Source of the DNA: Patescibacteria group bacterium
Lineage (GTDB): Bacteria > Patescibacteriota > WWE3 > 0-14-0-20-40-13
Length of the DNA stretch: 64,000 nucleotides
Direction of reading: 5' to 3'
NCBI GenBank assembly: GCA_018896215.1
Contig: JAHINB010000013.1
Coordinates: forward strand, 17,946-81,945
This document shows positions 18,767 to 58,423 of this stretch, piece by piece. A program made the position numbers and the translations under genes. Below the pieces are notes generated by a model. That model saw only the letters and a list, made by a program, of their open reading frames with translations, did no database searches and was not told where the DNA came from. Positions within the stretch are counted from its first letter, which is position 1. The number at the start of each line of letters is the position of its first letter.

Positions 18767-18784
18767 GGGTCAGACCCTAAAACA
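18764..18784. repeat. boundary palindrome TAAGGGTCAGACCCTAAAACA
   Basis: Exact copy of 15862-15882. Confidence 0.65.
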
Positions 18785-18858
18785 ACTACAACAAGATTCA
18801 TGAAATTCCCATCCAAAATTTTTTGCCAAAGGCAAAAGCGTTGCAAGAACTTTAGTTC

Positions 18859-33047: not shown

Positions 33048-33433
33048 TATGTTTTGGTGAGAACTTTTTTCATGCCTCCAATAGTCTGCCTTTTTCCTCG
33101 TTTAGTTCTGGCGTTGGTTTTTGTACGCTGACCTCGCGCTGGGAGCTTTTTAAAATGCCTAATTCCTCTGTAACACTTAATGTCTGTTAATCTTTTTATA
33201 TTAGAGTAGACCACTCTCTTAAGCTCCCCTTCGAGCATAATCTTCATTCTTTCTATAGTGTCCCTAAGTCGCACAGTCTCATCTTCGGTTAAAGCGCTGA
33301 CCCGAGTATCGGGATTAATCTTTGCCATTTCGAGAATTTTTTTAGCTCGGGAGGCTCCCACACCATAAATATACGGCAACGCCGCTTCGATTCTTTTTTT
33401 ATTTGGAAGTTCTATTCCTACAATTCTCGCCAT
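33047..33433 (-). CDS. rpsM: 30S ribosomal protein S13
   Basis: MARIVGIELPNKKRIEAALPYIYGVG. Confidence 0.9.
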   Translation of the reverse strand: MARIVGIELPNKKRIEAALPYIYGVGASRAKKILEMAKINPDTRVSALTEDETVRLRDTIERMKIMLEGELKRVVYSNIKRLTDIKCYRGIRHFKKLPARGQRTKTNARTKRGKRQTIGGMKKVLTKT

Positions 33434-33435
33434 AA

Positions 33436-33552
33436 TTATCCCTGCCTTTGCTTATGCTTGGGATTTGCCTTGCAAATAACCCGCAAAACATTCTCCCTTT
33501 TAATAATTTTGCACTTATTGCAAATTTTTTTGATTGATGATCTAACTTTCAT
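33436..33552 (-). CDS. rpmJ: 50S ribosomal protein L36
   Basis: 38-aa ORF below the ORF-track threshold: [38 protein letters not shown] (C..C..C..H zinc ribbon), in the expected infA-rpmJ-rpsM position. Confidence 0.75.
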
Positions 33553-33617
33553 AACAAGATTCAAGAAAAAATACTAAAATATTTCGCGAAGCGAAAGCGT
33601 TACAAGCTTCGCTTATA
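33553..33617. repeat. E-family structured intercistronic repeat (infA-rpmJ spacer)
   Basis: AACAAGATTCAAGAAAAAATACTAAAATATTTCGCG-AAGCGAAA-GCGTTACAAGCTTCGCTTATATC. Near-identical to the rplF-rplR spacer copy. Confidence 0.65.
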
Positions 33618-33839
33618 TCATTTGATCCTAAAGACTATCCTCCCCTTGGTAGTATCGTATTTAGTCATTTCTACCCTAACCGTATCACCAGGTAAAATCC
33701 TAATATGATGCAGTCGCATCTTTCCCGAGACATGCGCCAAAATTGGCAACTCGTCCGTTTCAAATTTTACCTTAAACATGGTATTAGGTAGGGATTCCAA
33801 AACCACGCCTTCTCGAACTTCTATATCCTCTTTTTGCAT
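33618..33839 (-). CDS. infA: translation initiation factor IF-1
   Basis: S1-like OB fold ([28 protein letters not shown]). Start at the internal Met (MQKEDIEV). Confidence 0.85.
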
Positions 33840-33888
33840 AAATAAATACAACCCCATAAAGGGCTCTGGGTATTAAAACAAAAAAAAC

Positions 33889-34668
33889 CTATCTAGTCAA
33901 TATCCTATAACCGTTCTCCGTTACTGCAACCATATCCTCTAACATTGCTGACAACTTACCGTCCTTTGTTTTAACTGTCCAGCCGTCACGAGAAACGGCA
34001 AGCTCTGGAGAGCCTGCTACATACATTACTTCTACACACAAAACCATTCCGCAAACAAGCGATACTCCAGAACTACATCTGCCAAAGCAAGGAATTTGTG
34101 GGTCTTCATGAAGCTCTTTTCCAATAGCGTGACCAGTAAGATCGCGAATAACATTATAGCCTGCTCTTTCGATAGTATTTTGGATTGTACAAGAAATATC
34201 TCCTACAAAATTTCCGGGTACAATAGCATTTATTGCTCTATCTAAAGCCAGCTGACCTATCTGCAAAAACTTTTTAGTTGCGGGATTTGGTTCCTGCCCT
34301 ACTACAATAGTCCGACACATGTCCGATTTCCAACCGCCAAATAAGGCGCCCATATCTAAAGATAATAGATCGCCTTTTTTAACCTTTCTTCCGCCCGGCA
34401 TTCCATGAACAACTTCATCGTTGATGCTAATGCAGGTAGAAAACTTGTAACCACCTTCACCAAGGAACGATGATTTGGCATGAAGCGATTTAAGTTGCGA
34501 AGAAACAAACTTGTCAATATTGGCTGTTTTAAGACCAGGGTGAATCCAACCTAAGGTTCTTTCCATCACCTTCTTGGCAATTTGGGCAGTAAGATAGATT
34601 TCTTCGATTTCTTGAGGGGTTTTAATGATTACCATAAGATTTAATTTTGTCGGATATTTGACGGGCAA
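33889..34668 (-). CDS. map: methionine aminopeptidase type I
   Basis: Metal-binding D/H/E pattern of pita-bread fold (HGMPG, DMGALFGGWKSDMCRT, HEDP). Confidence 0.85.
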   Translation of the reverse strand: MPVKYPTKLNLMVIIKTPQEIEEIYLTAQIAKKVMERTLGWIHPGLKTANIDKFVSSQLKSLHAKSSFLGEGGYKFSTCISINDEVVHGMPGGRKVKKGDLLSLDMGALFGGWKSDMCRTIVVGQEPNPATKKFLQIGQLALDRAINAIVPGNFVGDISCTIQNTIERAGYNVIRDLTGHAIGKELHEDPQIPCFGRCSSGVSLVCGMVLCVEVMYVAGSPELAVSRDGWTVKTKDGKLSAMLEDMVAVTENGYRILTR

Positions 34669-35161
34669 TTTCTTCTACGCTGGGACTTCCATCAACCTCA
34701 AGTAATTTGTTTTGCTTTCTAAAAAAATCCAACACTGGTTCGGTTAGTTGGTGATAAACCAAAAGCCGTTCTTTGATGATCTCCGGCGTGTCGTCACCTC
34801 GTCCCCGTTCGTTTAACCTTTTGATGCATTCTTCGTCGGTTAATTTGATATAAATAGCAAGATCAATGGGAGTTGAGGAATGTTCGGCTTGATACAAATC
34901 TCTTGGGGCGCCGTCCAAGGCAAAACCTTTGTCTTTTAGCTTAGAAAGATGTAAATCTATAATCTCAACCGCATCTTGATTATTTACTAAATGACCCCGA
35001 TCCATGGCGGTTTCGACTCGCGCACCAAGCGGGGTGTTATCTTGCTTTAGTTTTCTAAAAATATCACCAGTAGAAAGGTGCAAAACTCCAAGACTTTTGG
35101 CTAAAATCTCGGCTTGAGTAGACTTACCACTCCCCGGCATTCCCATAATAACTATATTCAT
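34622..35161 (-). CDS. adk: adenylate kinase (short form)
   Basis: P-loop GMPGSGKSTQAE and an NMP-binding region. 179 aa. Confidence 0.8.
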   Translation of the reverse strand: MNIVIMGMPGSGKSTQAEILAKSLGVLHLSTGDIFRKLKQDNTPLGARVETAMDRGHLVNNQDAVEIIDLHLSKLKDKGFALDGAPRDLYQAEHSSTPIDLAIYIKLTDEECIKRLNERGRGDDTPEIIKERLLVYHQLTEPVLDFFRKQNKLLEVDGSPSVEEIARQISDKIKSYGNH

Positions 35162-35220
35162 GAGTTGATTTTACCTCACAAACCGCTATTTACGAAACGG
35201 TATTTGCGCACCTATCAATT

Positions 35221-35249
35221 CGGGTACTACCCGAATCGGGTAGTACCCG
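35221..35249. repeat. perfect 29-nt palindrome
   Basis: CGGGTACTACCCGA-A-TCGGGTAGTACCCG, within the GC-rich insert between adk and the ybaB-like gene. Confidence 0.6.
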
Positions 35250-35454
35250 ATAATATCTTGCCACTAAAGGGTTCTTTTGAATACAGTGTTTCGTGTTGTT
35301 ATAGCAAGGAAAATTTACTATCAATTGCAACTGGATGCAGATGGAGTGGGGCACCTCTTAAACAACAAAAAGAAAAAGAAAAGGCGCTGGAGTCTCTCAT
35401 GATACATCAAGAGAAAATACCCCCAGCACCTTCCGCAACTTCCCCCCCACCGCA

Positions 35455-35818
35455 TCACTTGTTGGCATCGATACAATCGGAGAGGCTCTGCAAGAATGCC
35501 TTGGCGGATACATCGCCATATGGAAAACCCACGACATCGTATACGATGCGATGCCCCCCCCCCGATTTCAGCACGAAACACGGTACGCCACTCGTTAAGA
35601 CTCCCCATTCCTACCCGCAGAAAGATCACTCTGCGCCGTTTATCTTGTACAGCATGAGAGTAAGCTTCCACAGCCAAATGCAAGTGTCTGGGGTACAACA
35701 TAACGAGAACGATGTCGGCAGGTTCACCAATCTCATAATCATGAGCAAGGAGCAATTGCTCAATGATCCTGCGACCCTCGGGAACAAAGTCCTCGAACAG
35801 AAACAGTTTCTGCTTCAT
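35455..35818 (-). pseudogene. small GC-rich gene with strong Shine-Dalgarno, interrupted at a C10/G10 homopolymer (frameshift or phase-variable tract)
   Basis: AAAGGAGGAATCC then ATG at 35816-35818 (minus) opens a clean 85-codon frame (MKQKLFLFEDFVPEGRRIIEQLLLAHDYEIGEPADIVLVMLYPRHLHLAVEAY...RAEIGGG). It reaches ten consecutive C (35554-35563). The actual frame continues as R/C-rich low-plausibility sequence, whereas the -1 frame reads HRIVYDVVGFPYGDVSAKAFLQSLSDCIDANK then a stop. Confidence 0.4.
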
Positions 35819-35899
35819 GGATTCCTCCTTTGTGAGATTCCTCACTGATTTGTAGAGATTCGAGGGGGTAAGTGAGGTTATTATAACACAAAAAGCGAT

Positions 35900-36166
35900 T
35901 TAAAACCCAAAATCTCCCATTTGACCTTGCATTTTGTGGGCGACCTTTTTTTGGGCTTCTTTAACCGCTTTATTAAAAGCCTCCTTGAGACGCACATCCA
36001 ACTCGCCATCTACCCAAACCTCTTGCACATGATTATCTCCCTGCATCACGACTTTGATTCCTTTCTCCTCCACCTCAACAACAATCGCTTCCATTTGCTT
36101 CTTCATCTCATCAGCCTTCTTTTTCATCTCATAAAGTTTTTTTACATTGCCAAATGGTAGTGCCAT
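35900..36166 (-). CDS. YbaB/EbfC-family nucleoid-associated protein
   Basis: 88 aa, KE-rich helical protein with a C-terminal MQGQMGDFGF tail. Confidence 0.6.
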   Translation of the reverse strand: MALPFGNVKKLYEMKKKADEMKKQMEAIVVEVEEKGIKVVMQGDNHVQEVWVDGELDVRLKEAFNKAVKEAQKKVAHKMQGQMGDFGF

Positions 36167-36187
36167 GTTTTAATAATTAAAAACTCA

Positions 36188-37474
36188 CTAAATAATCTTA
36201 GCATCGTAATCGCGCATGATAAGTTGCGATTGGAGTGATTTTACCGTTTCTAATACCACAGATACAACAATTAAAATTCCTGCCCCCCCAACGGTAAGAG
36301 TGGCAATACCCGTGATGCTTTGAGCTACATTCGGCAGTACCGCAACTAACCCTAAAAACAATGCCCCAACCAAAGTGATTCTGGTTACCACCCGATTTAG
36401 ATAATCGGATGTTGGCTTTCCGGGCCTAATTCCTGGGATAAACCCACCCTGTTTTTTTAAGTTGTCTGCCACATCTTCGGGGTTAAAAGCTACCGCAGTG
36501 TAAAAATAGGTAAACGCAAAAACCAAAATAAAATAAAAAGCATTATATATCCAGCCCCCCATTTTAAAATAAACCGTAAGCACTCTGCCGATTTCCGCCA
36601 ATTGCGGACTCTTTGCCGAAACGAGAACATTGCCAAGAAAAGAAGGCAGTAACACTAAAGAGACCGCAAAGATGATGGGAATCATTCCCGCCATATTAAC
36701 TCGCAAAGGCAAAAAATTACTCCCCCCGCCATAAATTCGTCCCCCGCGCAACCTTTTGGCATATTGAACTTGAACATTTCGCGTCGCCTCATTGACAAAA
36801 ACCACGGCAGCAACAACGCCGATTGCCAAAGTAAAAATAATCGCAATATTTGTTATACCTTGTGAGCTTACTGTGGCAAGAGTTTGCCCAAAGGATCGCG
36901 GAAGCTTGGCCACAATTCCCGAGAAAATTATGATCGAAATGCCATTGCCAATCCCATATTCCGAAATTAATTCTCCCAACCACATTAAAAGGACACTCCC
37001 CCCTGTCATGGCAACAACCAAACGCAAAACATCGGCAGGTGACAAATTTCCAATAATCCCCTGTTTAGAAAGCAAAATAAACATTCCGTAAGATTGCATA
37101 GCGCACATGGGAATAGCAATAATTCTGGTGTACTGATTTATTTTTATTCTGCCAAATTCGCCCTCTTTGCTCATTTCTTCCAATTTTGGAAAAACCTTAG
37201 TAAAAAGTTGCATAATAATAGAGGCGTTAATATAGGGACCAAGACCTAAAGTAACCAACGAAAAGTTTTCCATACCACCACCAGTAAAGACATTTAAAAA
37301 GCCTAAAATTTGGCTAGAATTAAATAAATTTTGCAAGGCGGTAATATTTGCCCCCGGAATTGGAATATGAGCTAAAAAACGAAATACAAAAAGAATTCCA
37401 AAAGTAAAAAGGATTTTTCTTTTAAGATCTTTTTCACTAAATAAATCGCTAAATATCTTTAAGACCGAATTCAT
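36188..37474 (-). CDS. secY: preprotein translocase subunit SecY
   Basis: 428 aa with 10 TM helices and conserved SecY plug/hinge motifs. Confidence 0.95.
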   Translation of the reverse strand: MNSVLKIFSDLFSEKDLKRKILFTFGILFVFRFLAHIPIPGANITALQNLFNSSQILGFLNVFTGGGMENFSLVTLGLGPYINASIIMQLFTKVFPKLEEMSKEGEFGRIKINQYTRIIAIPMCAMQSYGMFILLSKQGIIGNLSPADVLRLVVAMTGGSVLLMWLGELISEYGIGNGISIIIFSGIVAKLPRSFGQTLATVSSQGITNIAIIFTLAIGVVAAVVFVNEATRNVQVQYAKRLRGGRIYGGGSNFLPLRVNMAGMIPIIFAVSLVLLPSFLGNVLVSAKSPQLAEIGRVLTVYFKMGGWIYNAFYFILVFAFTYFYTAVAFNPEDVADNLKKQGGFIPGIRPGKPTSDYLNRVVTRITLVGALFLGLVAVLPNVAQSITGIATLTVGGAGILIVVSVVLETVKSLQSQLIMRDYDAKII

Positions 37475-37917
37475 GTGGCAGTTCCTCCAGCTTTAGTAAT
37501 TTTAGCAAGTGCCGATTTAGAATACAAAAACCCCCTAAAGTTAAGCTTTTCGGAAAATTCCCCATCTCCTAAAATCTTGGGCTTAAAGTATTTATTAGCC
37601 CGAATAACACTTTTTTTTACCAGCGTACTGGGAGTTATGGTTTCTCCCGCCTTAAAGCCTTTTAAACTTTTGAGATTTATTGTGGTAACTTTTTTAGATA
37701 CCGGAGAGTTGCCTTTTCCTCTTTTTTGGGGCATGCGCTTAATAATTGCTATTTGCCCACCTTCGAAAAAAGACGGGATATTATGCCCCGATCTTGCCTT
37801 TTGTCCTTTGTTTCCCCGTCCCGATGTATGTCCCCCCTTTCCTGAACCAATTCCCCTCCCCACCCTTTTAGCACTTCTCCTGCTACCTTTTAATTTTGGT
37901 AAGTTGCTTAAATTCAT
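37471..37917 (-). CDS. rplO: 50S ribosomal protein L15
   Basis: Gly/Arg-rich N-terminus RGIGSGKGGHTSGRGNKGQKARSG. Directly follows rpsE with no rpmD (L30) gene between them. Confidence 0.85.
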   Translation of the reverse strand: MNLSNLPKLKGSRRSAKRVGRGIGSGKGGHTSGRGNKGQKARSGHNIPSFFEGGQIAIIKRMPQKRGKGNSPVSKKVTTINLKSLKGFKAGETITPSTLVKKSVIRANKYFKPKILGDGEFSEKLNFRGFLYSKSALAKITKAGGTAT

Positions 37918-38405
37918 ACTCTTTGTGATTTAAGGCTTTTTAAAGCCTTAATAACGGCATAAACATTGTTTAACTTGTTGTTTGAGCCAAGCATTTTTGA
38001 CGAAACATTTTTAATACCCGCAACCTCCAACACTTTGCGTACAGCTCCCCCAGCAATAATTCCCGCGCCGTCTGGAGCCGGCTTAATAAATACCTGACAG
38101 GCGCTGTATTTTGCCCAAACTTCATGAGGAATTGTTCCTTGACGAACCGGCACTGTAAACATTTTTCTTCTAGCACCACTGGTAGCTTTGGCAATAGCAG
38201 ACGCGGTATCACCCGCTTTTCCCAAAGAAATCCCAATTGATCCTTCTTTGTTCCCTACAACTGCTAAAACCGAAAAGGCAATTTTATTACCACCCTTGGT
38301 TTTTTTAGCTACCCTTTTTATTTCGATAATTTTTTCTTCAAAACTGTCCTTTGGGGTTCTTGCGCCATAAGCGTTTTTTCTTGTTCTTTCGTTTTGTTTT
38401 TGCAT
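37914..38405 (-). CDS. rpsE: 30S ribosomal protein S5
   Basis: S5 dsRBD-like core. Confidence 0.9.
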   Translation of the reverse strand: MQKQNERTRKNAYGARTPKDSFEEKIIEIKRVAKKTKGGNKIAFSVLAVVGNKEGSIGISLGKAGDTASAIAKATSGARRKMFTVPVRQGTIPHEVWAKYSACQVFIKPAPDGAGIIAGGAVRKVLEVAGIKNVSSKMLGSNNKLNNVYAVIKALKSLKSQRV

Positions 38406-38409
38406 AATA

Positions 38410-38757
38410 CTAGAAAACTAATTTATTTTCCCTCGCCCCTTCGGCAACCGCTTTTACTCTACCATGATACTTATAACCCGAACGATCAAAAACCACTTTC
38501 TTAATCTTGGCATCAAGCGCTTTTTTTGCTACAGCTTTACCTACTTCGTAAGCCCTTTTGGTCTTTTTAGTTTTTGCATCCATCTTTAGATCGGAGCTTG
38601 CAACCAAAGTTACACCTTTTTCATCGTTTACTATTTGAGCATAAATATGCTTATGGGACCTAAAAACGCTTAGTCTAGGTCGTTCTTTGGTTCCTACTAC
38701 TTTTGCTCTAATTTTAGCTTTTATCCTCTCGCGAGGGCTTTTGTGTGTCACTTTCAT
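38410..38757 (-). CDS. rplR: 50S ribosomal protein L18
   Basis: [21 protein letters not shown]. Confidence 0.85.
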
Positions 38758-38909
38758 ATATTTATATACAAGCTTCGCTTATAACAAGATTTAAGAACAA
38801 ATACTAAAATGTTTCGCGTCAGCGAAAGCGTTACAAGCTCTGCTTATAGCGAAAGCGTTACAAGCTCTGCTTATAGCGAAAGCGTTACAAGCTCTGCTTA
38901 TAATGATCT
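38758..38909. repeat. E-family intercistronic repeat region (rplF-rplR spacer) including the tandem array
   Basis: CAAGCTTCGCTTATAACAAGATTTAAGAACAAATACTAAAATGTTTCGCGTC, then 3x27-bp units, then AATGATCTC. Confidence 0.7.
38821..38901. repeat. perfect tandem repeat, 3 x 27 bp (AGCGAAAGCGTTACAAGCTCTGCTTAT)
   Basis: Three identical contiguous units read directly from the sequence. Non-coding, between rplF stop and rplR start. Confidence 0.9.
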
Positions 38910-39464
38910 CTAAGTTTTACCGGACGCCCCGGCTTTTCCGGCTTTACCAGCTTTTCTTCTGATAATTTCTCCTTGGTACTTAATTCCTTTGCCTTTGTAA
39001 GGCTCTGGCTTTCTAACTTTTCTAATTAACGCGCTAAACTGCCCTACTTGTTGCTTATCACAACCGCTAACTTTAATCTTAACATCGTCAGAAACTTCTA
39101 CCTTTAACCCTTGGGGAATTTCCATTTTTACCGGATGAGAATACCCAACTGTTAAAACAAGTGTGTTGCCTTCTATTTTTGACCTAAAGCCAACTCCCGA
39201 GAGCTCTAACTTACGAAAAAACCCGTTAGAGACCCCCGTAACCATATTGGCAATTAATGCCCGCTCCAACCCCCAGTAGGCATTTTCCGTTTCTCCATCC
39301 TTTAGATAAACCTCAATTTCATTTTTATTGATCTTTAAACCCACCTCGGGTCGAACAACCCTTGTTAGGGTACCACTAGATCCCACAACTGTCACTAAAT
39401 CGCCAACGCAGGTTACTGTTACCCCCGCAGGAATATCAATTGGCATTTTGCCTATTTTACTCAT
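38910..39464 (-). CDS. rplF: 50S ribosomal protein L6
   Basis: Two-domain L6 (SKIGKMPIDIPAGVTV...). Confidence 0.9.
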   Translation of the reverse strand: MSKIGKMPIDIPAGVTVTCVGDLVTVVGSSGTLTRVVRPEVGLKINKNEIEVYLKDGETENAYWGLERALIANMVTGVSNGFFRKLELSGVGFRSKIEGNTLVLTVGYSHPVKMEIPQGLKVEVSDDVKIKVSGCDKQQVGQFSALIRKVRKPEPYKGKGIKYQGEIIRRKAGKAGKAGASGKT

Positions 39465-39469
39465 AGTAA

Positions 39470-39877
39470 TTAGTAAACCTCACAAATAACTTCTCCACCC
39501 AAAGCCTTTTTTCGAGATTCCTGACCTGTTAATACTCCTCTAGGTGTTGATATAATTTGAACACCCATACCATTTCTAATCTTTTTAATATCCTTAGATT
39601 TAATATATTTCCTTAAGCTAGGCTTAGAAATAATTTTTAAATGCGACATAATTGGCTCTCCACTCTCCCCAAACGCCACTTCTATATGCAACCTTTTAAA
39701 AGATTCTCCAGAATTCTTAAATGACTTAACAGAAGCTACAAAACCACAAGTTTTTAAGGCCTGCGCTACCGACTCCGCTAACTTTGAATAGGGAGCCTCA
39801 AAAGACTCGTTTTTTGCCATAACAGTGTTTTTAAGTTGGGACAAAAAATCTACAATCATATTAGTTTCGTTTAGCAA
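39470..39877 (-). CDS. rpsH: 30S ribosomal protein S8
   Basis: S8 pattern with C-terminal GGEVICEVY. Confidence 0.85.
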
Positions 39878-40043
39878 CTCCTGGTAATTCTCCTGCCATT
39901 GCCATTTCTCTAAAACAAATTCGGCAAATTCCGTATTTTCTAATAAACCCGTTCACTCTGCCACAAAACTGACATCTATTGTAAGCTCTTACGGCAAATT
40001 TAGGTGTTTTTTTGTGTTTTAAAATTAGCGCTTTTTTAGGCAT
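39861..40043 (-). CDS. rpsZ: 30S ribosomal protein S14 type Z (zinc-binding)
   Basis: 60 aa, [10 protein letters not shown]...CRICFRE Cys4. Confidence 0.85.
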
Positions 40044-40620
40044 TTTTTATGGGTTTTAACTCTTTTTTAAACGGCATACCCAAAGCCTTAAGCAATAAGT
40101 AACCGTCGGAATCGTTAGAAGCCGTTGTTGTTATAACAACCTGAAGGCTTTTTATCTTTTCGATTTTATTAGAGTCTATAGTTGGAAAAACCAAATGCTC
40201 TCTAAAACCTATAGAACAATTTCCGTGACCATCAAAAGACTTTTTAGAAATTCCTCTAAAATCGCGAACCCGTGGCAACACTACACAGACTAAATTCTGG
40301 AAAAAATCCCACATTTTGACTCCTCGTAGTGTAACACATACCCCAACATCCTCCCCCTTCCTCAATTTAAAACTGGCAATAGACTTTTTGCTTTTTGTAA
40401 CTTGCGGTTTTTGCCCTGTTATCTGCTCCAAATCACGAATGCAAGACTCTTTATATTGTTTATCGTCCTTAAACCTTCCAATTCCCATATTTACAGTGAT
40501 CTTTCCCAAAGTTGGAACAGCGTGAACATTACCTTTTTCAAGCTTTTTAAGTAAATCTTTTTTTATTTCTTTTTCAAATTTTTCTTGTAATGTATTCATG
40601 GCATTATAACTTCCTTGCAT
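40036..40620 (-). CDS. rplE: 50S ribosomal protein L5
   Basis: L5 core. Confidence 0.9.
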
Positions 40621-40907
40621 TTACCACACTTGCGGTATTTTTTTCCCGCCACAATCGAAAATCCAACTCGCGTGGGCTTTTTACATTTGGGACAAACTAA
40701 CATAACTTTAGACACTGCTATAGGCATTTCTTTGGAAATGATCCCTCCTTTAACATTTCTCCCCGAACTTTTTGTATGTCTCTTTACCACATGAACTCCT
40801 TTGACTACAATTTTAGAACTTGCCGTAATCACTCTTTCGACAACAGATTCCTTGCCTTTTTCTTTTCCTGATAAAATTTTAACCGTATCTCCTTTTCGTA
40901 TTTTCAT
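40596..40907 (-). CDS. rplX: 50S ribosomal protein L24 (KOW) with C-terminal CxxC...CxxC
   Basis: N-terminal KOW (KIRKGDTVKILSGKEKGK) and a C-terminal CPKCKKPTRV...CGKCKEV. Confidence 0.85.
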   Translation of the reverse strand: MKIRKGDTVKILSGKEKGKESVVERVITASSKIVVKGVHVVKRHTKSSGRNVKGGIISKEMPIAVSKVMLVCPKCKKPTRVGFSIVAGKKYRKCGKCKEVIMP

Positions 40908-40917
40908 GCTATGTTAA

Positions 40918-41286
40918 CTACCAAACTTCTGTTGCTAATGACACGATTTTGGAAAATCCGGCATCTCTTAATTCTCTTGCTACAGGACCAAAAACTCTTG
41001 TACCCAACGGCAGTTTGTCCGCGCCAACAACACAAGCCGCGTTATCATCAAATCTAATATGTGACCCATCTTTACGTCGCTGTTCCTTTCTACACCTCAC
41101 GACTACAGCCTTTACAACCGAGTGGTCCTTTACAATACCTGTTGACGAAGCCCCCTTTACAACACAGGTTACAATGTTTCCCAATAGAGCAAACCTTCTT
41201 CTGGAATTCCCAGGAATACCAATAATAAGCAACCCCTGTGCCCCACTGTTATCCGCAAGTTTTAGTCTTGATCCAACTTGAACCAT
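40918..41286 (-). CDS. rplN: 50S ribosomal protein L14
   Basis: [17 protein letters not shown]. Confidence 0.9.
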
Positions 41287-41290
41287 AGAA

Positions 41291-41521
41291 TTAATTTATC
41301 TTAGTAACTACCCAATTCTTAAAGCAACTTAGCGGTCTTGATTCTTCTATAGTCACAAAATCTCCTAACTTGGCGCCAACTTCGTTATGCGCTTTAAACC
41401 TTCGGGTATTGCGGATCTCTTTGCCATACATGGGATCTTTTCTTGGCATCTCTACAGCTACAATTGCAGTTTTCTGCATCTTGTCCGAAACTATTTTTCC
41501 TACAAATGTCTTTTTAGGCAT
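41291..41521 (-). CDS. rpsQ: 30S ribosomal protein S17
   Basis: OB fold ([19 protein letters not shown]). Confidence 0.85.
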
Positions 41522-41532
41522 AATGACAAATC

Positions 41533-41733
41533 CTAACTTTGAATAATCTCTTTTTCTCTTAAAATTGTCTTAATTCGCGCTATTTGCTTTCTAATTTTGG
41601 CAATTTTTGCGACCTCTTTAAGCTTTCCCAAAGAGTGGCTCAATTTAGCATCTATTATTTCTTTCTGCAACAACTTAAAGTCTGCGAGCAACAATTCTTT
41701 GGTTTTATCACGAAGCTTTGATATTGATTCCAT
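41533..41733 (-). CDS. rpmC: 50S ribosomal protein L29
   Basis: 66-aa helical hairpin in the expected rplP-rpmC-rpsQ order. Confidence 0.8.
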   Translation of the reverse strand: MESISKLRDKTKELLLADFKLLQKEIIDAKLSHSLGKLKEVAKIAKIRKQIARIKTILREKEIIQS

Positions 41734-41738
41734 GGTAT

Positions 41739-42146
41739 TTAATCTGCTTGAACAAACCCTGTTTTAATCGGTAATTTATGCGAGGCGCGATCAAACGCTT
41801 CTCGAGCTACTGCCTCGGTAACACCAGACAGCTCAAACATTATTTTTCCCGGTCGAGTTCTGCAGGAAAAATGGTCTGCCAAGCCTTTCCCGCCACCCAT
41901 TCTTGTTTCGGCAGGCTTTTTTGTTACAGGATTATCGGGAAATACTCTAATCCAAAGCTTTCCGCTTCTTTTAGTAAAATGCGTAATGGCTTTTCTGGCA
42001 GCCTCTATTTGCCGCGATGTAATATAGCCACGATCCATGGCTTTAAGACCAAACTCTCCAAAATCAACATTAGAACCGCGATTACTCAATCCCGCGATTG
42101 TGCCTCTTTGGGTCCTTCTAAATTTCATTCTCTTTGGCATTAACAT
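41739..42146 (-). CDS. rplP: 50S ribosomal protein L16
   Basis: [15 protein letters not shown]. Confidence 0.9.
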
Positions 42147-42153
42147 AAAAAAA

Positions 42154-42795
42154 TTACTTGATGTTTTCGTACTCGCCTCGATAAATCCAAACTTTTATTC
42201 CAATGCTTCCATATGCTGGCATTGCTTCTACCCGGGCAAAATCTATATCAGCTCGCAAGGTTTGGGTGGGAACTGTTCCACGAGAAAATTTCTCGTTGCG
42301 TCCAATACTGGAAGCGCCACTTAAAAGACCCGAGACTTCTATTTTAATACCCAAAACCCTTGCCTCCTGCGCTTTTTGCAAAGCCGAGTTTACCGCTCTT
42401 TTATAAGGAATTCGTTTTTCTATTTGATCCGCAATAGCTCGGGCTGTAAGATAAGCGGATTTTTCGATCTCTTTAATTTCCTCAACCACCAAATCTACTT
42501 TTTCCGGCGTTAATTTTTTTAACTCCTCTCGTAAAAGCGCGATTCCCGCCCCACCTTTTCCAATAACTACCCCAGGACGAGAAATAGCCACAACTATTTT
42601 AATGTTTCCAAAGGAGCGCTCAATGACAACTTGAGAAATTCCTGCCCCAGAAAGCCTTTTCATTAAAAACCTTCTAATTTTTTGATCTTCTAAAACATAC
42701 GCAGGCAACACTTTTTTGTCTTGAGTAAACCAAATAGATTGCCAATTTTTGTAGACCCCGTAACGGAAACCGTTAGGATTTGTTTTTTGTCCCAT
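42154..42795 (-). CDS. rpsC: 30S ribosomal protein S3
   Basis: [16 protein letters not shown] domain. Confidence 0.9.
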
Positions 42796-43141
42796 TTTCG
42801 TCAGAAACTGAAAGAGATAATTTAATATTTGTGGTTCTTTTTAAAATTGGGCGGGCGGTTCCCTTGGAACCAGCTCTAATTCTTTTAAGCGTTGTCCCTT
42901 TTCCCACCATAATTTCGGATAAAAACATCTCATCGCTTTCAAGACCTCTGCTCTTTGCTGACGCTACTGCCGATTTGATTAGATTAGCAACCGGTCTGGC
43001 TGATCTTTTGACCGTAAAAGCAAGCCGTCTTCGCGCCTCCATGACTGTGCACCCCCTCACAAGATCGCAAACCAAAGCGACTTTTCTTGGCGTTATTCTT
43101 AAATTATTTAATTTTGCAACAACCTGTTGTTTTTTTTCCAT
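42773..43141 (-). CDS. rplV: 50S ribosomal protein L22
   Basis: L22 core. Confidence 0.85.
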   Translation of the reverse strand: MEKKQQVVAKLNNLRITPRKVALVCDLVRGCTVMEARRRLAFTVKRSARPVANLIKSAVASAKSRGLESDEMFLSEIMVGKGTTLKRIRAGSKGTARPILKRTTNIKLSLSVSDENGTKNKS

Positions 43142-43167
43142 AATCCTTAGACGCTTTCTATAGCTAT

Positions 43168-43515
43168 CTATTTTGCTCCCGCTTTAGGTGACGGCTTTGG
43201 CGCAGTTGGAGAAATACCCTCCGGTGCTCTCTTGGCAGAACTTTCTTTTTTAAGACCTTTTCTGCTGTGAGTTCTAAAGGTCCTGGTTAAAGAAAACTCC
43301 CCTAACTTGTGCCCAACCATAGACTCGGTGACAAACACCCCAATAAAGGTTTTTCCGTTATGTACTTCGAAATTTAACCCCACCATCTCGGGACTTATGG
43401 TAGATCTTCTACTCCATGTTTTTATAGCCCCACGATTTAATGTAGCTTTCGCTTTTTTTACTTTTTCTTGCAATTTTGGGTCAATGTAGGGACCCTTTTT
43501 TTGTGATCTGCTCAT
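43168..43515 (-). CDS. rpsS: 30S ribosomal protein S19
   Basis: Start taken at the ATG ([15 protein letters not shown], cf. the canonical S19 N-terminus). The longer TTG-initiated ORF runs into the upstream repeat element. Confidence 0.85.
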
Positions 43516-43604
43516 ATCTATAACAAGATTCAAGAAAACTTCCTATTAATATCCCCGATGGATATCGGGGGCGTTACATATTTCCACGCTTCCCGCGTGG
43601 AAAT
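43516..43604. repeat. E-family structured intercistronic repeat (rplB-rpsS spacer)
   Basis: ATCTATAACAAGATTCAAGAAAACTTCCTATTAATA, then hairpin CCCCGAT-gga-TATCGGGG, then GCGTTACATA, then hairpin TTTCCACGC-ttcc-GCGTGGAAA, then TCTATTTCC. Confidence 0.7.
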
Positions 43605-44426
43605 CTATTTCCTTTCAACAATAAATTTATCGGTATGAGTTCTTTTTCTAGTTTTAAACCCTTTAGCAGGTTGTCCCCAAGGACTTACCGGAGACGCTCT
43701 TCCAACCCCCGATGTTTTGTAACTGCCCCCATGTGGATGAGATCTAGGACTACCATAGGCTACACCTCTTACCTTAGAGCGCCGTCCCAAGTATTTCTTT
43801 ATTCCCGCTTTACCTAGGCTAATATTTTTAACATCTTCGTTGTCCAAAACACCAAAAGATCCGCTACAGTTTCCAAAAATCTTTTTTACCTCACCACTCG
43901 GAAGCTTGATATTAACATATTTCCCCTCTTTTGCGGTAATGGTTGCAAAATTCCCTGCTCCTCTAGCCATTTCTCCACCTTTTCCAACATGTAGCTCTAC
44001 GCAATTAATATACGATCCAACCGGCATTAAATTTAAGGGGCAGGAATTTCCAGGGTTTTGATCAACAGCCTGCTTCGACGAAACAACGGTATCCCCAACT
44101 TTAAGTTCTTTGGGTCTTAAAATATAGCGCCGTTCACCATCAGCATATAAAATTAAAGCTATAGAACTGCCTCTATTGGGATCGTACTCTATTTGCTCAA
44201 CTTTAGCCAAAATGTCGTATTTATCCCTTTTAAAATCTATCTTGCGATAGGCCTTTTTAGCACCCGCAGATCTGTGGCGCATTGAAACCCTACCACGAGA
44301 TCTAGCAGTAGATCCACGACTGCCAACAACCAAAGACTTTACTCTTGCAAGCTTTTGGTTTTTTCGCCTTAAACTAATTTTTCCCCTTTGACCTGGGGTT
44401 GTGGGTTTGTATCTTTTTAATGCCAT
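43605..44426 (-). CDS. rplB: 50S ribosomal protein L2
   Basis: 273-aa L2 (GRNNRGRITVRHRGGGHKR-like motifs). Confidence 0.95.
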   Translation of the reverse strand: MALKRYKPTTPGQRGKISLRRKNQKLARVKSLVVGSRGSTARSRGRVSMRHRSAGAKKAYRKIDFKRDKYDILAKVEQIEYDPNRGSSIALILYADGERRYILRPKELKVGDTVVSSKQAVDQNPGNSCPLNLMPVGSYINCVELHVGKGGEMARGAGNFATITAKEGKYVNIKLPSGEVKKIFGNCSGSFGVLDNEDVKNISLGKAGIKKYLGRRSKVRGVAYGSPRSHPHGGSYKTSGVGRASPVSPWGQPAKGFKTRKRTHTDKFIVERK

Positions 44427-44428
44427 AG

Positions 44429-44758
44429 TTAACTTGTCTTCTTAACCTTCTTAGCCTTTCCTAATTTCTTCTCCACAACTTCAAATAAATCGATTTTCTG
44501 ACCCGTTGCTAATTTAGCGAAGGCTTTTTTATACTCTTTGGTTTTATAAGACATTCTAGCCTTTGTTAAACTTCTTTTTGTTTTGCTCTTTGTTTTTAAA
44601 GTATTCAACCTCGTAACCTTAACCTTAAAGTGCTGCTCTATTTGATCAATAATCGCCCCTTTTGACGCCTCTTTAACAACTGCAAAGGAATAAATGCCTT
44701 TTTTTACCAAGTGGGTAGTTTTTTCTGTGATTATAGGTCTAATTATTATTTGTTGCAT
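44429..44758 (-). CDS. rplW: 50S ribosomal protein L23
   Basis: L23 core, position between rplD and rplB. Confidence 0.8.
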   Translation of the reverse strand: MQQIIIRPIITEKTTHLVKKGIYSFAVVKEASKGAIIDQIEQHFKVKVTRLNTLKTKSKTKRSLTKARMSYKTKEYKKAFAKLATGQKIDLFEVVEKKLGKAKKVKKTS

Positions 44759-45381
44759 AGTTCTGAAATAACCTCTTTTTCTAAAACAGTCAGCGCCACG
44801 GAAGATAACTCAAAAGCGTTAATTGCTCTGGAGTCGCAAACACTAACCTGCGAAAGATTTCTAAACGATCTTAAAACTTTAAATCTTTCGGCAACTTCCT
44901 TTTTGGCAGAAATTACTAAAAGAGCTTTTTTATCTATTTTTAAATTGTTTAAAATACCTATGGCATCTTTTGTTTTTAGCTTGTCCATATCTAATCTATC
45001 CAAAACTAAAATACTTTTAGTCTGCAAGGCGCAAGAAAGGGCTGATACAAGCGCTCCCCTCTTTTGAGCTTTATTTAAAGAGAGTCTTTTTGTGTAAGGA
45101 ACAGGTCCGTGAGATATTCCACCGCCTACCCAAACTGGAGACCTAGATGACCCAGCCCGCGCCCTACCCGTATGTTTTTGGTTCCAAGGCTTTTTTCCGC
45201 CACCAGAGACTTGAGACCTTGTTTTGGTCTTGTGTGTTCCTTGGCTTTGATTAGCTTGATACATTCTAATGTACTGCGCTATTAGATCCAGATTTGGAGT
45301 AACACCAAAAACCTCTTTGGGAAGAGTTATTTTTTCAACTTCTTGGCCTTCTTTATTTAAGACGCTTACCTTTAAACTCAT
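44746..45381 (-). CDS. rplD: 50S ribosomal protein L4
   Basis: L4 core. Confidence 0.85.
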   Translation of the reverse strand: MSLKVSVLNKEGQEVEKITLPKEVFGVTPNLDLIAQYIRMYQANQSQGTHKTKTRSQVSGGGKKPWNQKHTGRARAGSSRSPVWVGGGISHGPVPYTKRLSLNKAQKRGALVSALSCALQTKSILVLDRLDMDKLKTKDAIGILNNLKIDKKALLVISAKKEVAERFKVLRSFRNLSQVSVCDSRAINAFELSSVALTVLEKEVISELCNK

Positions 45382-45809
45382 GTTAGTATTTCAACTTGCA
45401 CCTTTGACCGCCTTGCTCCTGGCACCCCACCTAAAACTTTGATTTCGAGTTTTTCTTTTTCTAGACCAACAATCTTGGATCCCGGTACTGTAATGCTAGC
45501 ATTTCCAAAGTGCCCCGGCATTTTGAGACCTTTAAAAACTCTTCCAGGGGTGGAAGGACCAGTAGAACCAATTGCCCTTTGCCTGTCCGACTGACCATGG
45601 GTAGCAGGACCTCCCTTATGCCCCCACCTCTTCATCACACCAGAAAAACCACGCCCTTTTGAAACTCCTTTTAGCTTTATTTTTTGACCAATGGCAAGCT
45701 CTTTTTCCGGCCAGACAGAAAGTACCACTGTTGTAAAAGGAACGACATCTCCATTTTCTAAATATAATAAACCCATGTCTTTTTTTGTTCCTAAAAGTTT
45801 TGTTTCCAT
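45378..45809 (-). CDS. rplC: 50S ribosomal protein L3 (short form, ~143 aa)
   Basis: The N-terminus aligns with canonical L3 (METKLLGTKKDMGLLY vs MIGLVGKKVGMTRIF). The C-terminal half GFSGVMKRWGHKGGPATHGQS...GGVPGARRSKVQVE is present, but ~60 residues of the canonical internal region are missing. Confidence 0.8.
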   Translation of the reverse strand: METKLLGTKKDMGLLYLENGDVVPFTTVVLSVWPEKELAIGQKIKLKGVSKGRGFSGVMKRWGHKGGPATHGQSDRQRAIGSTGPSTPGRVFKGLKMPGHFGNASITVPGSKIVGLEKEKLEIKVLGGVPGARRSKVQVEILT

Positions 45810-45905
45810 ATCTTATAACAAGATTCAAGAATAATTCCTATTAATTTCCTCGCCCACGGCGAGGGCGTTACATAGTTGCACGAGCTTGCTCGTGGAAATC
45901 TATGT
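45810..45905. repeat. E-family structured intercistronic repeat (rpsJ-rplC spacer)
   Basis: ATCTTATAACAAGATTCAAGAATAATTCCTATTAATTTCC, then hairpin CTCGCC-cacg-GGCGAGG, then GCGTTACATAG, then hairpin CACGAGC-tt-GCTCGTG, then GAAATCTATG. Confidence 0.7.
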
Positions 45906-45924
45906 TTGGTGCAGGGTGGGATAG

Positions 45925-46233
45925 TTAGGCCTTTATTTCTATTCCTACTCCCGAGGGCAAATTTAAATGTGACAACTGATCCATGGTACTTGGAGTTGGA
46001 TTGTCAATATCAATAATTCTTACATGCGTTCTGACTTCAAAGTGCTCGCGAGATCTAGAATCAATATGCGGACCGCGCAGAACCGTAATGACTTCTTTTT
46101 TGCAAGGAAGCGGAACGGGACCCGAGACTCTAGCGCCAGTCCTTATGGCGCAATCTACAATTTTTGCAGCGCTTTGATCAACCACTCTGCTATCATATGA
46201 CTTTAATTTTACCCTAATCCTTCCTTTAGACAT
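45925..46233 (-). CDS. rpsJ: 30S ribosomal protein S10
   Basis: [14 protein letters not shown]. Confidence 0.9.
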
Positions 46234-46328
46234 ACGACATCACAACAAGATTTAAGAAAACATCCAAATAATTTCCCCCGACGAATGTCGGGGGCGTTGC
46301 AAGCTTTTTCGCGTAATCGCGAAAAGGG
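46234..46328. repeat. E-family structured intercistronic repeat (tuf-rpsJ spacer)
   Basis: ACGACATCACAACAAGATTTAAGAAAACATCCAAATAATTTCC, then hairpin CCCGAC-gaat-GTCGGGG, then GCGTTGCAAG, then hairpin TTTTTCGCG-taat-CGCGAAAAG. Confidence 0.7.
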
Positions 46329-47522
46329 TTATTTAATTACCTTCGAGACAACTCCTGCTCCAACCGTTTGACCACCTTCGCGAATAGCAAATCGCATTCC
46401 CTCTTCCATAGCAACTGGAGTAATCAGCTTAATGCTTAATTTTACATCATCACCTGGCATTGCCATCTCTGTCCCTGCGGGCAAATCGGCTTCTCCAGTA
46501 ACATCTGTGGTTCTAATATAGAATTGTGGCTTGTATCCGCTAAAAAACGGGGTGTGTCTGCCACCCTCTTCTTTAGAAAGAACATAGACGCTGGCCTCAA
46601 ACTCGGTGTGAGGGGTAATTGATCCTGGCTTTGCCAAGACCTGACCTCTTTCTACTCCATCTCGCTCAATTCCTCTTAAAAGGATCCCTACATTATCCCC
46701 GGCCTGCCCCTCGGGAAGAGATTTCTTAAACATCTCAATTCCAGTAACAACCGTCTTGGAGGTTGGTTTAATTCCAATTATTTCTACTTCCTCGTTAATT
46801 TTAACAACACCCCTGTCGATTTTTCCTGTAACCACTGTTCCACGACCCTTGATGCTAAACACATCCTCTATCGGCATTAAAAAGGGCTTGTCCAAATCTC
46901 TCTTTGGAGTTGGAATAAACTCATCAACCGCTTTCATTAAGTCTTCGATAGCTTTAATGGACGCGGGATCGCCTTCCAACGCTTTTAGAGCGGAACCTCT
47001 GATAATTGGAGTAGTGTCCCCCGGATACTCAAACTTTTTGAGCATATCTCTAAGCTCCATTTCGACTAAATCGCACATTTCATTCTTTTCGGCGTCGGTT
47101 CCAGGCAGAGCGTCGACTTTATTTAAAAATACGACCAGGGATGGAACATTAACTTGACGCGCTAAAAGAACATGTTCTCTTGTTTGAGGCATAGCTCCAT
47201 CGGTTGCCGCAACAACAAGAATAGCGCCGTCCATTTGGGCAGCTCCGGTAATCATGTTTTTAATGTAATCTCGATGCCCCGGAGCATCTATGTGGGCATA
47301 GTGACGAGCTTCGGTTTCGTACTCAACATGAGTAATGTTGATTGTAATACCACGAGCCTTCTCTTCTGGGGCTTTGTCAATTTGATCGTAAGCATAAAAT
47401 TGAGACAAACCCTTAGAAGCGAGTACCTTAGTAATTGCCGCAGTAAGTGTGGTTTTACCATGGTCTACATGACCTATGGTTCCAATATTTACATGAGGCT
47501 TAGTTCTGATGAATTCTGCCAT
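46329..47522 (-). CDS. tuf: elongation factor Tu
   Basis: [19 protein letters not shown] motifs. 397 aa. Confidence 0.95.
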
Positions 47523-47617
47523 AGAAAAAATCTAAATTTAAAAACTAGTGTGTACGCGCGTCTTGCGAACACTAACCTTTAAATGCTAGATATAAAAACA
47601 AGTAAACTTTTAAAGAA

Positions 47618-49726: not shown

Positions 49727-50055
49727 GATCTTACAACAAAAAACTCCTATACGGAGTTTCCTCTTTTTAGCAAATTTTGCAACTAATAGCAACGGGTAAT
49801 CACAATCGGTTTGACACCGCACAATTTCCCCTTGACAAGAGTCGTATCTTATAGTAAAAACTGCTCACCTGTCAACTACTTGGAGAGAGCCTGTAAAAAG
49901 GGCTTCCCCTGCGCCTTTTGCGTCTTATCCCTGTCATAAAAATCAGTAAACGAAAAATGAATCGTGTTTCCCTCACTCTGTGGGGGAGATTCAGGCACCT
50001 TAAAAACTGAATAGCGAATTTCATCTTTTATCAAAGAAAGGAAAGGAGGTGTCCC

Positions 50056-50700
50056 TTGTTTGATTTAATAAAGGGAGCACTATGGGCGATGGCAGGAGCT
50101 TTCGGGGACATCTTCCTGCTGGTATTCAATGTCTTGTCCCCATTGTTATTTGACCCGCTAAAAGCGGGAGCGCTGGAGCTCCGTGGCAATGAGTCTGAAA
50201 AAGAGGCTCTAGAAAAGATTGCCACGGCGTTCAAGAGGAACAGGCGCCTTCGCTGGAAAGCTCTGGATCCCGAAAGGGATCCTGCTATGGTTGGTCTGTA
50301 TGTACTGACCAACAATCTCCGTTTCCTCTTTGAGCTCCTAGCAACACAGGTCTTGCTAGAGAGCTCCGCAGGAGGAGAAAGTATAACGCTGATCAAGCAT
50401 GTACGGTTCGGCTGGCTCCTGCGCCTTTTTAGTTTTGAAGGCTACGCGGAGCCAACCCCACTGACTGACATCACTCCCGCGAGAGGTGGCGATGTCACTT
50501 ATCTGCCGTGGAAGATCATCCATGGATCCTCCGGAGAGGTTGTGGAGACCGGTCTTCTCGTAAGGCTGGTCAATTTCCTGACCCAAAAGAGGGTAGTTCA
50601 ATTCTTGACCGCGTCGGGGGAAGCCGACATGTGGCAATTCCCAAACGCGGAGAGATCATGGCGCAAGCTGATGTGGTTGGTCGAAGTCACTACTCAATAA
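50056..50700 (+). CDS. island gene 1: hypothetical protein with N-terminal hydrophobic segment
   Basis: TTG start 6 nt after AAGGAGG. 214 aa. G+C-rich codons. No recognisable motif. Confidence 0.45.
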   Translation: MFDLIKGALWAMAGAFGDIFLLVFNVLSPLLFDPLKAGALELRGNESEKEALEKIATAFKRNRRLRWKALDPERDPAMVGLYVLTNNLRFLFELLATQVLLESSAGGESITLIKHVRFGWLLRLFSFEGYAEPTPLTDITPARGGDVTYLPWKIIHGSSGEVVETGLLVRLVNFLTQKRVVQFLTASGEADMWQFPNAERSWRKLMWLVEVTTQ

Positions 50701-50717
50701 AGGAAAGGAGAAATATC

Positions 50718-50993: not shown

Positions 50994-51003
50994 CGGGGCA
51001 GGA

Positions 51004-52044: not shown

Positions 52045-52063
52045 CGCGGGGAGGGAGGAAACC

Positions 52064-54010: not shown

Positions 54011-54045
54011 TCGGTCCATCAAGCAAACCCCCAAAGGAGGGCGGA

Positions 54046-58421: not shown

Positions 58422-58423
58422 GA

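Follow-up and report, generated by a model that had tools for sequence, protein, structure and literature searches.

The BOX elements of the pneumococcus are small modular intergenic repeats of the form boxA-boxB(n)-boxC that are predicted to form stem-loops when co-transcribed, and the number of tandem boxB units within them varies between strains, a variation attributed to slippage or unequal crossover (PMC3049150). The subject of this report is a locus of similar build in an uncultivated bacterium of the Patescibacteria (assembly GCA_018896215.1, contig JAHINB010000013.1), namely a perfect tandem array of three 27-nt units between rplF and rplR, the genes for ribosomal proteins L6 and L18. 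The whole stretch that was analyzed, 64,000 nt of that contig (positions 17,946 to 81,945), is called the window, and all coordinates are those of the window unless another locus is named. The array forms part of a larger hairpin-rich element, here called the module, which recurs elsewhere in the window, and near-identical strains carry one, two or three of the 27-nt units.

Judged by description, BOX would be the closest functional analogue of the module. Both are composite elements in which one part is tandemly variable, the 5' part being present one to three times here and twice in a WWE3 relative. No membership is claimed, and homology is unlikely given the distance between the phyla. The two also differ in several respects. 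The boxB repeats are internal, whereas the module duplicates its 5' portion; BOX has terminal inverted repeats like those of insertion sequences (IS), whereas the ends of the module share only about 6 nt by eye (AGATTT / AAATCT). A reading of these ends as terminal inverted repeats was rejected because no more than 6 nt are shared. Finally, the arrays described here have one to three units and lie at start or stop codons in ribosomal-protein operons of Patescibacteria.

Other families of interspersed repeats are similar in different ways. REP/BIME repeats and the IS200/IS605-derived PATEs are extragenic hairpins, often located within operons and co-transcribed, that lack terminal inverted repeats or clear target duplications; the hairpins of REP and PATE are conserved in sequence through recognition by Y1 transposases. 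The module may resemble these repeats in its insertion beside a short motif (...AT|R, the bar marking the junction) and in its strand-biased orientation: left flanks end in AT in 8/8 copies, and all seven window copies lie on one strand, an orientation that is confounded with gene direction. It differs from them in that its stems vary between copies and its single-stranded boxes are conserved. Miniature inverted-repeat transposable elements (MITEs), such as the Correia elements of Neisseria, are short non-autonomous insertions that are polymorphic for presence or absence, are transcribed with their neighbors and can alter expression. The module likewise has filled and empty sites (rpsJ-rplC within the species; arsR, rplF-rplR and rplN-rplX between species), but it lacks inverted repeats of 8 nt or more, its junctions share just 2-3 nt (AT or TAT), and it occurs in one orientation. 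Inspection of 74 kb (the window and an extra 10 kb of the source contig) revealed no IS element, no transposase and neither a RAYT nor a TnpA gene, and Pfam scans of about 45 open reading frames (ORFs) in the window gave no transposase or integrase. None of the MITE, REP/RAYT or IS200/IS605-derived classes fits the module in all of its defining features.

Taken by itself, the array resembles the intergenic variable-number tandem repeats (VNTRs) used in multiple-locus VNTR analysis, with a head-to-tail unit of at least 10 nt, conserved flanks and a copy number that varies between strains. It differs from these in nothing of kind, although its location in the spc operon of a streamlined genome is unusual.

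A perfect tandem array in the rplF-rplR spacer

An earlier note on this DNA had described a perfect 3 x 27-bp tandem repeat at 38821-38901, and both direct reading of the sequence and Tandem Repeats Finder bear this out. The sequence AGCGAAAGCGTTACAAGCTCTGCTTAT occurs three times head-to-tail without a mismatch (38821-38847, 38848-38874 and 38875-38901). Tandem Repeats Finder reports 38821-38902 with a period of 27, 3.0 copies, 100% matches and a score of 164, the top tandem repeat of the window (the runner-up scores 67); the T at 38902 extends the period by one nucleotide, giving an array of 82 nt. A pattern search of the window that tolerated up to three mismatches found the three exact units and one copy with two mismatches at 33590-33616, and the expectation from 100 dinucleotide-preserving shuffles, which served as the control, was 0. 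The exact array is far beyond chance. Its placement between rplF and rplR was confirmed by profile matches of the flanking ORFs to L6 and L18. Both genes are on the minus strand, and the array lies inside their 152-nt spacer:

38910-39464, minus strand: rplF (L6), upstream of the module; TIGR03654, E 1.6e-66
38821-38901, minus strand: tandem array of 3 x 27 nt, sense unit ATAAGCAGAGCTTGTAACGCTTTCGCT, units in the order 38901-38875, 38874-38848, 38847-38821
38410-38757, minus strand: rplR (L18), downstream of the module; TIGR00060, E 8e-35

The surrounding genes make up the usual S10-spc-alpha cluster, from rpsJ (45925-46233) to rpoA and rplQ, in which rpsE and rplO are not separated by a gene for L30. 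In the transcribed sense, the spacer consists of the rplF stop codon TAG, AGATCATT, three copies of ATAAGCAGAGCTTGTAACGCTTTCGCT, then GACGCGAAA CATTTTAGTATTTG TTCTTAAATCTTGTT, then ATAAGCGAAGCTTGTATATAAATAT, and finally the ATG of rplR. The following parts can be distinguished:

38887-38901, minus strand: hairpin 1 of unit 1 (AUAAGC-AGA-GCUUGU), from sequence and folds; recurs at 38860-38874 and 38833-38847
38828-38835, minus strand: UGUAACGC box in the last unit; those of the other two units are at 38855-38862 and 38882-38889
38812-38827, minus strand: hairpin 2 (UUUCGC-UGAC-GCGAAA), fold -5.8 kcal/mol; its 5' arm lies within the last repeat unit
38798-38811, minus strand: A/U-rich linker CAUUUUAGUAUUUG, from sequence
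38783-38797, minus strand: conserved 15-mer TTCTTAAATCTTGTT, the 3' end of the module, from sequence; the 15-mer family is also present in the WWE3 relative
38758-38782, minus strand: 25-nt polymorphic insertion ATAAGCGAAGCTTGTATATAAATAT, from the module end to the rplR ATG; includes a fourth copy of hairpin 1, identical to that of the rpmJ module

Each 27-nt unit thus contains hairpin 1, the UGUAACGC box and UUUCGC(U), the 5' arm of hairpin 2. The U.G wobble pairs of hairpin 1 can form only in RNA of the sense strand. The 3' arm of hairpin 2, GCGAAA, is present once, after the last unit, which identifies the unit as the 5' part of a larger module and leaves units 1 and 2 with orphan 5' arms. 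The earlier note had called the unit the 3' half of a recurrent module; that is true on the plus strand and corresponds to the 5' part in the transcribed sense, and the further claim of a tandem duplication of part of a module inside the spc ribosomal-protein operon also stands. The 25-nt insertion converts an AUG abutted by the module into one preceded by a 25-nt leader that begins with an rpmJ-type hairpin 1.

Unit number varies among near-identical strains

The identical L18 protein is encoded by 16 contigs in public assemblies, of which 10 were compared (loci L001 to L010). The compared contigs are 98.8-99.9% identical to the window in the flanks, and this identity together with the shared L18 places them in the same species. 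Units were counted in the assembled contigs, excluding three (L007, L008 and L009) that stop in or next to the array. The copy-number polymorphism predicted in the earlier note was found: the seven assemblies counted have one, two or three units. Three units occur only in the window's own metagenome-assembled genome (MAG). Two units occur in L001, L002, L005 and L006, which come from GCA_043827225.1, GCA_043825695.1, ERZ27247128 (contig k141) and ERZ928008 (contig k127; L005), and a single unit in GCA_043812435.1 and a Logan contig of SRR13007705 (L003 and L010).

The 25-nt segment ATAAGCGAAGCTTGTATATAAATAT is a second polymorphism of the same spacer. It is missing in ERZ928008 and SRR13007705 (L005 and L010), both of which have the canonical junction CTTGTTATG instead, and is carried by the other assemblies. 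All four combinations of one or two units with presence or absence of the segment occur, and the flanking single-nucleotide polymorphisms (SNPs) are mosaic. This pattern, as read from the assembled sequences, indicates recurrent change, recombination, or both.

A separate observation concerns the neighboring genes. At alignment columns 1289-1322 of L001-L010 (rplX/rplE, window ~40.4-40.5 kb), ten linked SNPs are common to L002, L003 and L010 and set these apart from the other strains. This cluster indicates a likely recombination tract in the ribosomal-protein operon of the species.

The module family

A repeat finder, together with pattern searches and an nhmmer profile, identified seven copies of the module in the window, all on the minus (gene) strand. 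Five lie in the ribosomal-protein cluster. No additional module was present in the extra 10 kb of the source contig, giving seven in 74 kb. The common plan is hairpin 1, (U/A)UGYAACGC, hairpin 2, an A/U-rich linker of 13-20 nt, TTC(T/A)T(G/T/A)AATCTTGTT, and then (A/G)T. The module is 64-87 nt long, and its 3' end is the near-invariant TTCTTGAATCTTGTT, at the start codon. In addition to the rplR copy, the window contains:

11174-11255, minus strand: module before arsR-sufCB, in the operon 5' leader; a sigma-70-like promoter lies upstream at 11283-11311
18788-18859, minus strand: degenerate module that directly follows the stop codon of a DNA-alkylation-repair gene; the genes on either side are convergent, and it is upstream of none
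33551-33614, minus strand: module between infA and rpmJ, of the same sub-type as the rplR copy, with a single unit; abuts the rpmJ ATG at 33552
43520-43606, minus strand: module in the rplB-rpsS spacer; the stop codon TAG of rplB is completed by the first bases of the module
45815-45901, minus strand: module in the rpsJ-rplC spacer; found in some strains of the species and lacking in others
46242-46325, minus strand: module between tuf and rpsJ, with a less certain left boundary; a module-free allele exists in L101

The 15-mer has seven copies in the window at one mismatch or less, all on the minus strand. Exact sites for TGTAACGC number seven in the window, compared with 0.9 expected, and all are within modules. 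The stems of both hairpins vary in sequence yet stay complementary in 8/8 copies (the seven of the window and one from WWE3); those of hairpin 2 are CCCCGAC/GTCGGGG, CCTCGCC/GGCGAGG, TTTTGCC/GGCAAAA or TTTCGC/GCGAAA, with energies of -4.7 to -14.1 kcal/mol. A comparison of UGYAAC with the terminal GUURUR found 48 of 48 cells paired, including one double change from U-A to C-G, a result equaled by 16 of 500 shuffles. Two copies with UGCAAC carry GUUGU, and the remaining copies carry GUUAU. These data provide modest evidence for a UGYAAC:GUURUR helix; in copies that abut the start codon, such a helix would enclose the AUG. A simple terminator scan picked out hairpin 2 of the rplR, rpmJ and rpsJ copies as a possible terminator, with weak stems of 6-8 bp; the other copies are followed by AAAUUAAUAG. 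Rfam 15 gave no match at gathering score in the window, and nothing relevant up to E = 5 in 33300-47700.

Canonical sigma-70-type promoters occur on the minus strand before fusA (TTGACA-16-TATAAG, 49848-49875) and before arsR (TTGACT-17-TAATAT, 11283-11311). The arsR promoter is conserved in a sister species and in WWE3, which argues that the lineage uses standard -35/-10 promoters; it lies upstream of the arsR module, and that copy would thus be located in the 5' untranslated region.

The module as a derived insertion

Comparison with relatives argues that the module has been inserted into these spacers. The nearest relatives by L6 are one lineage at 75% identity and the WWE3 genome CG08_land_8_20_14_0_20_40_13 at 62%. 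The rplF-rplR spacer is only 10-11 nt in both, and the WWE3 spacers at three other occupied sites are similarly short (S10-L3, 20 nt; L2-S19, 6 nt; IF1-L36, 8 nt). A sister species whose SufB is 89% identical, and WWE3, whose SufB is 74% identical, share the TTGACT-17-TAAYAT promoter before arsR-suf, but their leaders are short and have no module. These module-free leaders join as ...TTCTAT|GAATAAAAAA, and the window module sits exactly between the TAT and the G. Conversely, WWE3 has a module in its L14-L24 (rplN-rplX) spacer, where the window spacer is 10 nt and empty.

In all eight copies the AT of the left flank is followed by an element that starts with AG or AA and ends with GTT(A/G)T. 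With this combination of flank and element ends, insertion regenerates a start or stop codon: the ATG of arsR, rpmJ, rplR and WWE3 rplX, and the TAG or TAA of rplB and the alkylation-repair gene. A start codon re-forms where the 3' end of the element, ...GTTAT, meets a G, and a stop codon where the flanking T meets the initial AG or AA. The derived (inserted) state is shown by sequence comparison at four sites. The module therefore appears to be a derived, lineage-restricted insertion with turnover on the time scale of species, and not an ancestral operon signal.

Variation of occupancy is also found within the species. The rpsJ-rplC spacer is either filled (115 nt; L098, L099 and L101) or empty (30 nt; L097 and L100), with flanks 98.8-100% identical. 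Among the contigs compared (seven others for rpmJ, three for rpsS), no variation was found in the rpmJ, rpsS or arsR module.

As a side observation, the tuf-rpsJ spacer of one contig from the same species complex (L101 176-237, JGI Ga0180007_10018621) has no module. Its place is taken by a classical terminator, CTGGGGTGC-TATA-GGCACCCCAG-TTTTTT, after which comes a strong Shine-Dalgarno sequence, GGGGGAGGATAT ATG. Identity at the end of tuf is no more than 95% in this contig, a value that suggests import of the segment.

In wider searches, the module profile (nhmmer) found nothing in 80 L18 loci among the matches listed (metagenome contigs with L18 at 48-68% identity). A search of genome contigs with the pattern AACAAGATTHAWGAAN{26,40}GCGTTRCA gave a single Bacteroidetes match, which was scored as chance; this pattern says little on distribution, being too strict to match either the WWE3 copy, which reads TATAACGC, or the species' own genome. 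The 17 matches in viral contigs were likewise dismissed as chance, as all fall within coding sequence and lack the hairpin, and ten come from one phage gene family.

A parallel duplication and a model for the array

The WWE3 module provides a second example of tandem duplication (locus L095, GCA_002774285.1, 8397-8489). It contains a perfect 2 x 45-nt duplication (100% identity, score 186), found in both the NCBI and the JGI assembly (L095 and L096), with a unit that comprises hairpin 1 and an AUAACGC box and stops just inside the 5' arm of hairpin 2. The boundary of the duplication shows microhomology of 3 nt in WWE3 and of 1 nt in the window. On this comparison, the same segment of the element appears to have been duplicated twice independently, which would point to a property of the element rather than to chance. 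Most simply, repeated duplication would be caused by polymerase stalling and template switching at the hairpins.

The history of the rplR locus can be modeled as follows. The element would first have inserted at the start codon of rplR, at ...CATTAT|G. Slippage or template switching, either of which the hairpins could promote, would then have duplicated its 5' segment, made up of hairpin 1, the UGUAACGC box and the first arm of hairpin 2. Once two identical 27-nt units were present, their number could easily be altered by slipped-strand mispairing or unequal recombination, and such gain and loss would account for both the perfect identity of the units and the range of one to three among near-identical strains. 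The 25-nt insertion resembles a partial copy of an rpmJ-type hairpin 1 that may have entered the same TAT|G site using TAT microhomology.

Every allele retains one full box, hairpin 2, the linker and the 15-mer beside rplR. Additional units would bring only further copies of hairpin 1 and orphan UUUCGC arms, which folds suggest could compete for the GCGAAA arm. Since each allele has one intact module, the expansion is probably neutral, or modulates the expression of rplR and of downstream genes only mildly. The element itself may be tolerated as a supplier of a workable leader. An origin of the array by nested insertion was rejected, as the 15-mer is not duplicated.

Alternative explanations

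The reading that we consider likely is that the array is a genuine and recent slippage-generated VNTR, probably neutral or mildly modulatory, within a co-transcribed, structured and non-coding interspersed repeat that inserts at ...AT|R sites in the short gaps between genes. The parts of this reading that we infer are the slippage, the transcription of the module, the neutrality of the expansion and the spread of the element. Several observations weigh against it. The three-unit allele was seen in a single MAG, and three could be a lower bound. Mobility is deduced only from filled and empty sites, with no transposase, terminal inverted repeats or clear target-site duplication in 74 kb, and the empty rpsJ-rplC site, which reads AAACATA-C-AAGATATGG, has one base more than expected from clean excision. 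Four further features would also fit an RNA under selection: the strict sense orientation of the copies, the position of six of the seven window copies and of the WWE3 rplX copy 0-10 nt before start codons, the preservation of the 15-mer across species that share no more than 62% identity in L6, and the maintenance of stems by compensatory change.

These last features are also the core of the case for a selected cis-regulatory RNA, a leader or intercistronic element that would govern how translation begins, processing or partial termination in a lineage that makes weak use of Shine-Dalgarno sequences; unit number would then tune rplR and the downstream genes. Also in its favor are a UGYAAC:GUURUG helix that would sequester the AUG, the near-invariance of the 15-mer across species, the location of 5/7 copies in the ribosomal-protein cluster, and the terminator-like score of hairpin 2 with its U-rich tail in the E-type (rplR, rpmJ) and rpsJ copies; the allelism of the tuf-rpsJ module with a terminator and GGAGG Shine-Dalgarno sequence (L101) suggests functional equivalence. 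Yet module positions differ between species and the orthologous sites of relatives lack the module, the copy at 18788-18859 is upstream of no gene, no Rfam family matches, and the rpsJ-rplC copy is dispensable within the species; we consider this explanation rather unlikely. A narrower proposal would be that the 15-mer is a BoxA-type site for NusB/NusE (S10) following a BoxB-like hairpin, mediating antitermination or feedback on ribosomal-protein operons. The gamma-proteobacterial BoxA consensus is GYTCTTTAANA, a C4T/T6C double mutation abolishes its function, and putative boxA sites are reported upstream of rpsJ in several genera (PMC5725501). The module has the corresponding arrangement of a hairpin and then a U-rich, CUUUAA-like box no more than 50 nt from start codons, with one copy preceding rpsJ (NusE); its versions (TTTCTTTAATC, GTTCTTAAATC or TTTCTTGAATC) retain C4 and T6 and match 8-9 of 11 positions of this consensus, from which the BoxA of the host may differ. 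None is an exact match (the best is 9/11), a partial match is cheap in an A/T-rich context, and the modules are recent insertions instead of conserved sites; no rRNA operon was present in the window or the fetched loci for comparison. We regard a BoxA role as improbable.

The remaining explanations concern the array more than the module. Faulty assembly as the source of its copy number, or even of the whole repeat, might be argued from the confinement of three units to one MAG, three being the limit that an assembler with k = 55 resolves unambiguously (by our own calculation from array length, n <= 1 + (k-1)/27), and from the three of ten contigs (L007, L008 and L009) that end in or next to the array, as repeats often cause. 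This is very improbable: discrete one- and two-unit alleles come from independent samples and assemblers, the MEGAHIT contigs k141 and k127 span 54 nt easily, three MAGs with sibling prefixes (JBDR..., probably from one study) differ in copy number, the flanks are otherwise near-identical, and the like duplication in WWE3 is present in NCBI and JGI assemblies. Still harder to credit is an internal rplR promoter with TTGTAA boxes as repeated -35 hexamers. TTGTAA and TTGCAA do resemble TTGACA, TAGTAT or TAATAG follows downstream, and the organism uses canonical sigma-70 promoters (fusA, arsR), but the distance from TTGTAA to a -10-like hexamer is 23-25 nt, or 9 nt inside the array, a consensus scan with hexamers 16-18 nt apart found no minus-strand match in the spacer, and the real arsR promoter is upstream of its module. 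The chance is slighter again that the array is translated, in antisense, into a small protein in which a nonapeptide is repeated, MFRV(SESVTSSAY)x3NDL. An ORF of 34 aa with an ATG start (38809-38913, plus strand) spans the array, and 27 nt is a multiple of three; set against this, it lies opposite an essential operon without a ribosome-binding site or credible promoter, encodes only 16 aa in one-unit alleles, and has no counterpart at the rpmJ sister module. It is probably spurious.

Other features of the window

A block of ORFs on the plus strand (~50000-56600) has 55% G+C, compared with ~40% for the genome. It lies between rpsL-rpsG (57954-58849) and fusA (47618-49822), thereby splitting the str operon, and its ORFs are on the opposite strand and mostly without a Pfam match; one encodes an SLT transglycosylase plus M23 peptidase. 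The block looks horizontally acquired. Within the ribosomal-protein cluster, L3 (45378-45809; WWE3 L095 3571-4002) has just 143 aa and aligns with no more than positions 99-201 of the bacterial L3 model in both genomes, so that its shortness is a feature of the lineage and not a truncation by the adjacent module. The secY-adk interval contains ybaB and a 174-aa ORF without a Pfam match in the window (35321-36166), and ybaB with a nucleotidyltransferase/HepT toxin-antitoxin pair in WWE3 (L095 13098-14658); it looks like a variable slot in the cluster.

Two other repeat families were noted. The 10-nt repeat (A/T)ATCTGGCAA(C/T) forms two intergenic arrays (15879-15923 and 17730-17783) of three to five copies each, 1.8 kb apart, beside a PNPOx-like gene and a Fic/DOC gene; these could be operator or iteron-like sites. 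A second hairpin family, TTGTCTAAGGGTCAGACCCTAAAACA, occurs at gene ends (12423-12448, 15213-15238, 15857-15882 and 18759-18784), with two copies identical and one directly after the degenerate module at 18788-18859. These hairpins look like bidirectional terminators.

Significance

Genomes of the Candidate Phyla Radiation are streamlined, and the spacers of their ribosomal-protein operons are normally a few bases long. Here, structured insertions of 64-150 nt occupy the S10, spc and alpha operons and the suf leader, and vary between near-identical strains, with one of them growing as a VNTR. The repeat alone is an ordinary slippage product and VNTR, but its host is an undescribed, dynamic, hairpin-rich element in essential operons. 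We favor a view of the module, by analogy, as a co-transcribed REP/BOX-like interspersed repeat.

A more far-reaching possibility, which we hold only tentatively and think rather unlikely, is that the module is a new insertion element of WWE3-like Patescibacteria that targets start and stop codons (AT|G, T|AR) and carries a leader for Shine-Dalgarno-independent initiation, consisting of two protective hairpins and the conserved U-rich 15-mer, possibly also binding NusB/S10. If this were true, the element would colonize the 1-10-nt spacers of packed essential operons without killing its host and would rewire expression, and the 27-nt VNTR would be a fast-evolving tuning knob on the synthesis of L18 and downstream proteins.

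To our knowledge, almost nothing is known about promoters, leaders and mobile DNA in Patescibacteria. The array offers a ready strain-typing marker for an uncultivated lineage of groundwater type, and its alleles (0, 1, 2 or 3 units, with or without the 25-nt leader) form a natural series for relating intercistronic structure to ribosomal-protein stoichiometry. The module itself is a candidate for a new family of interspersed elements or regulatory RNAs.

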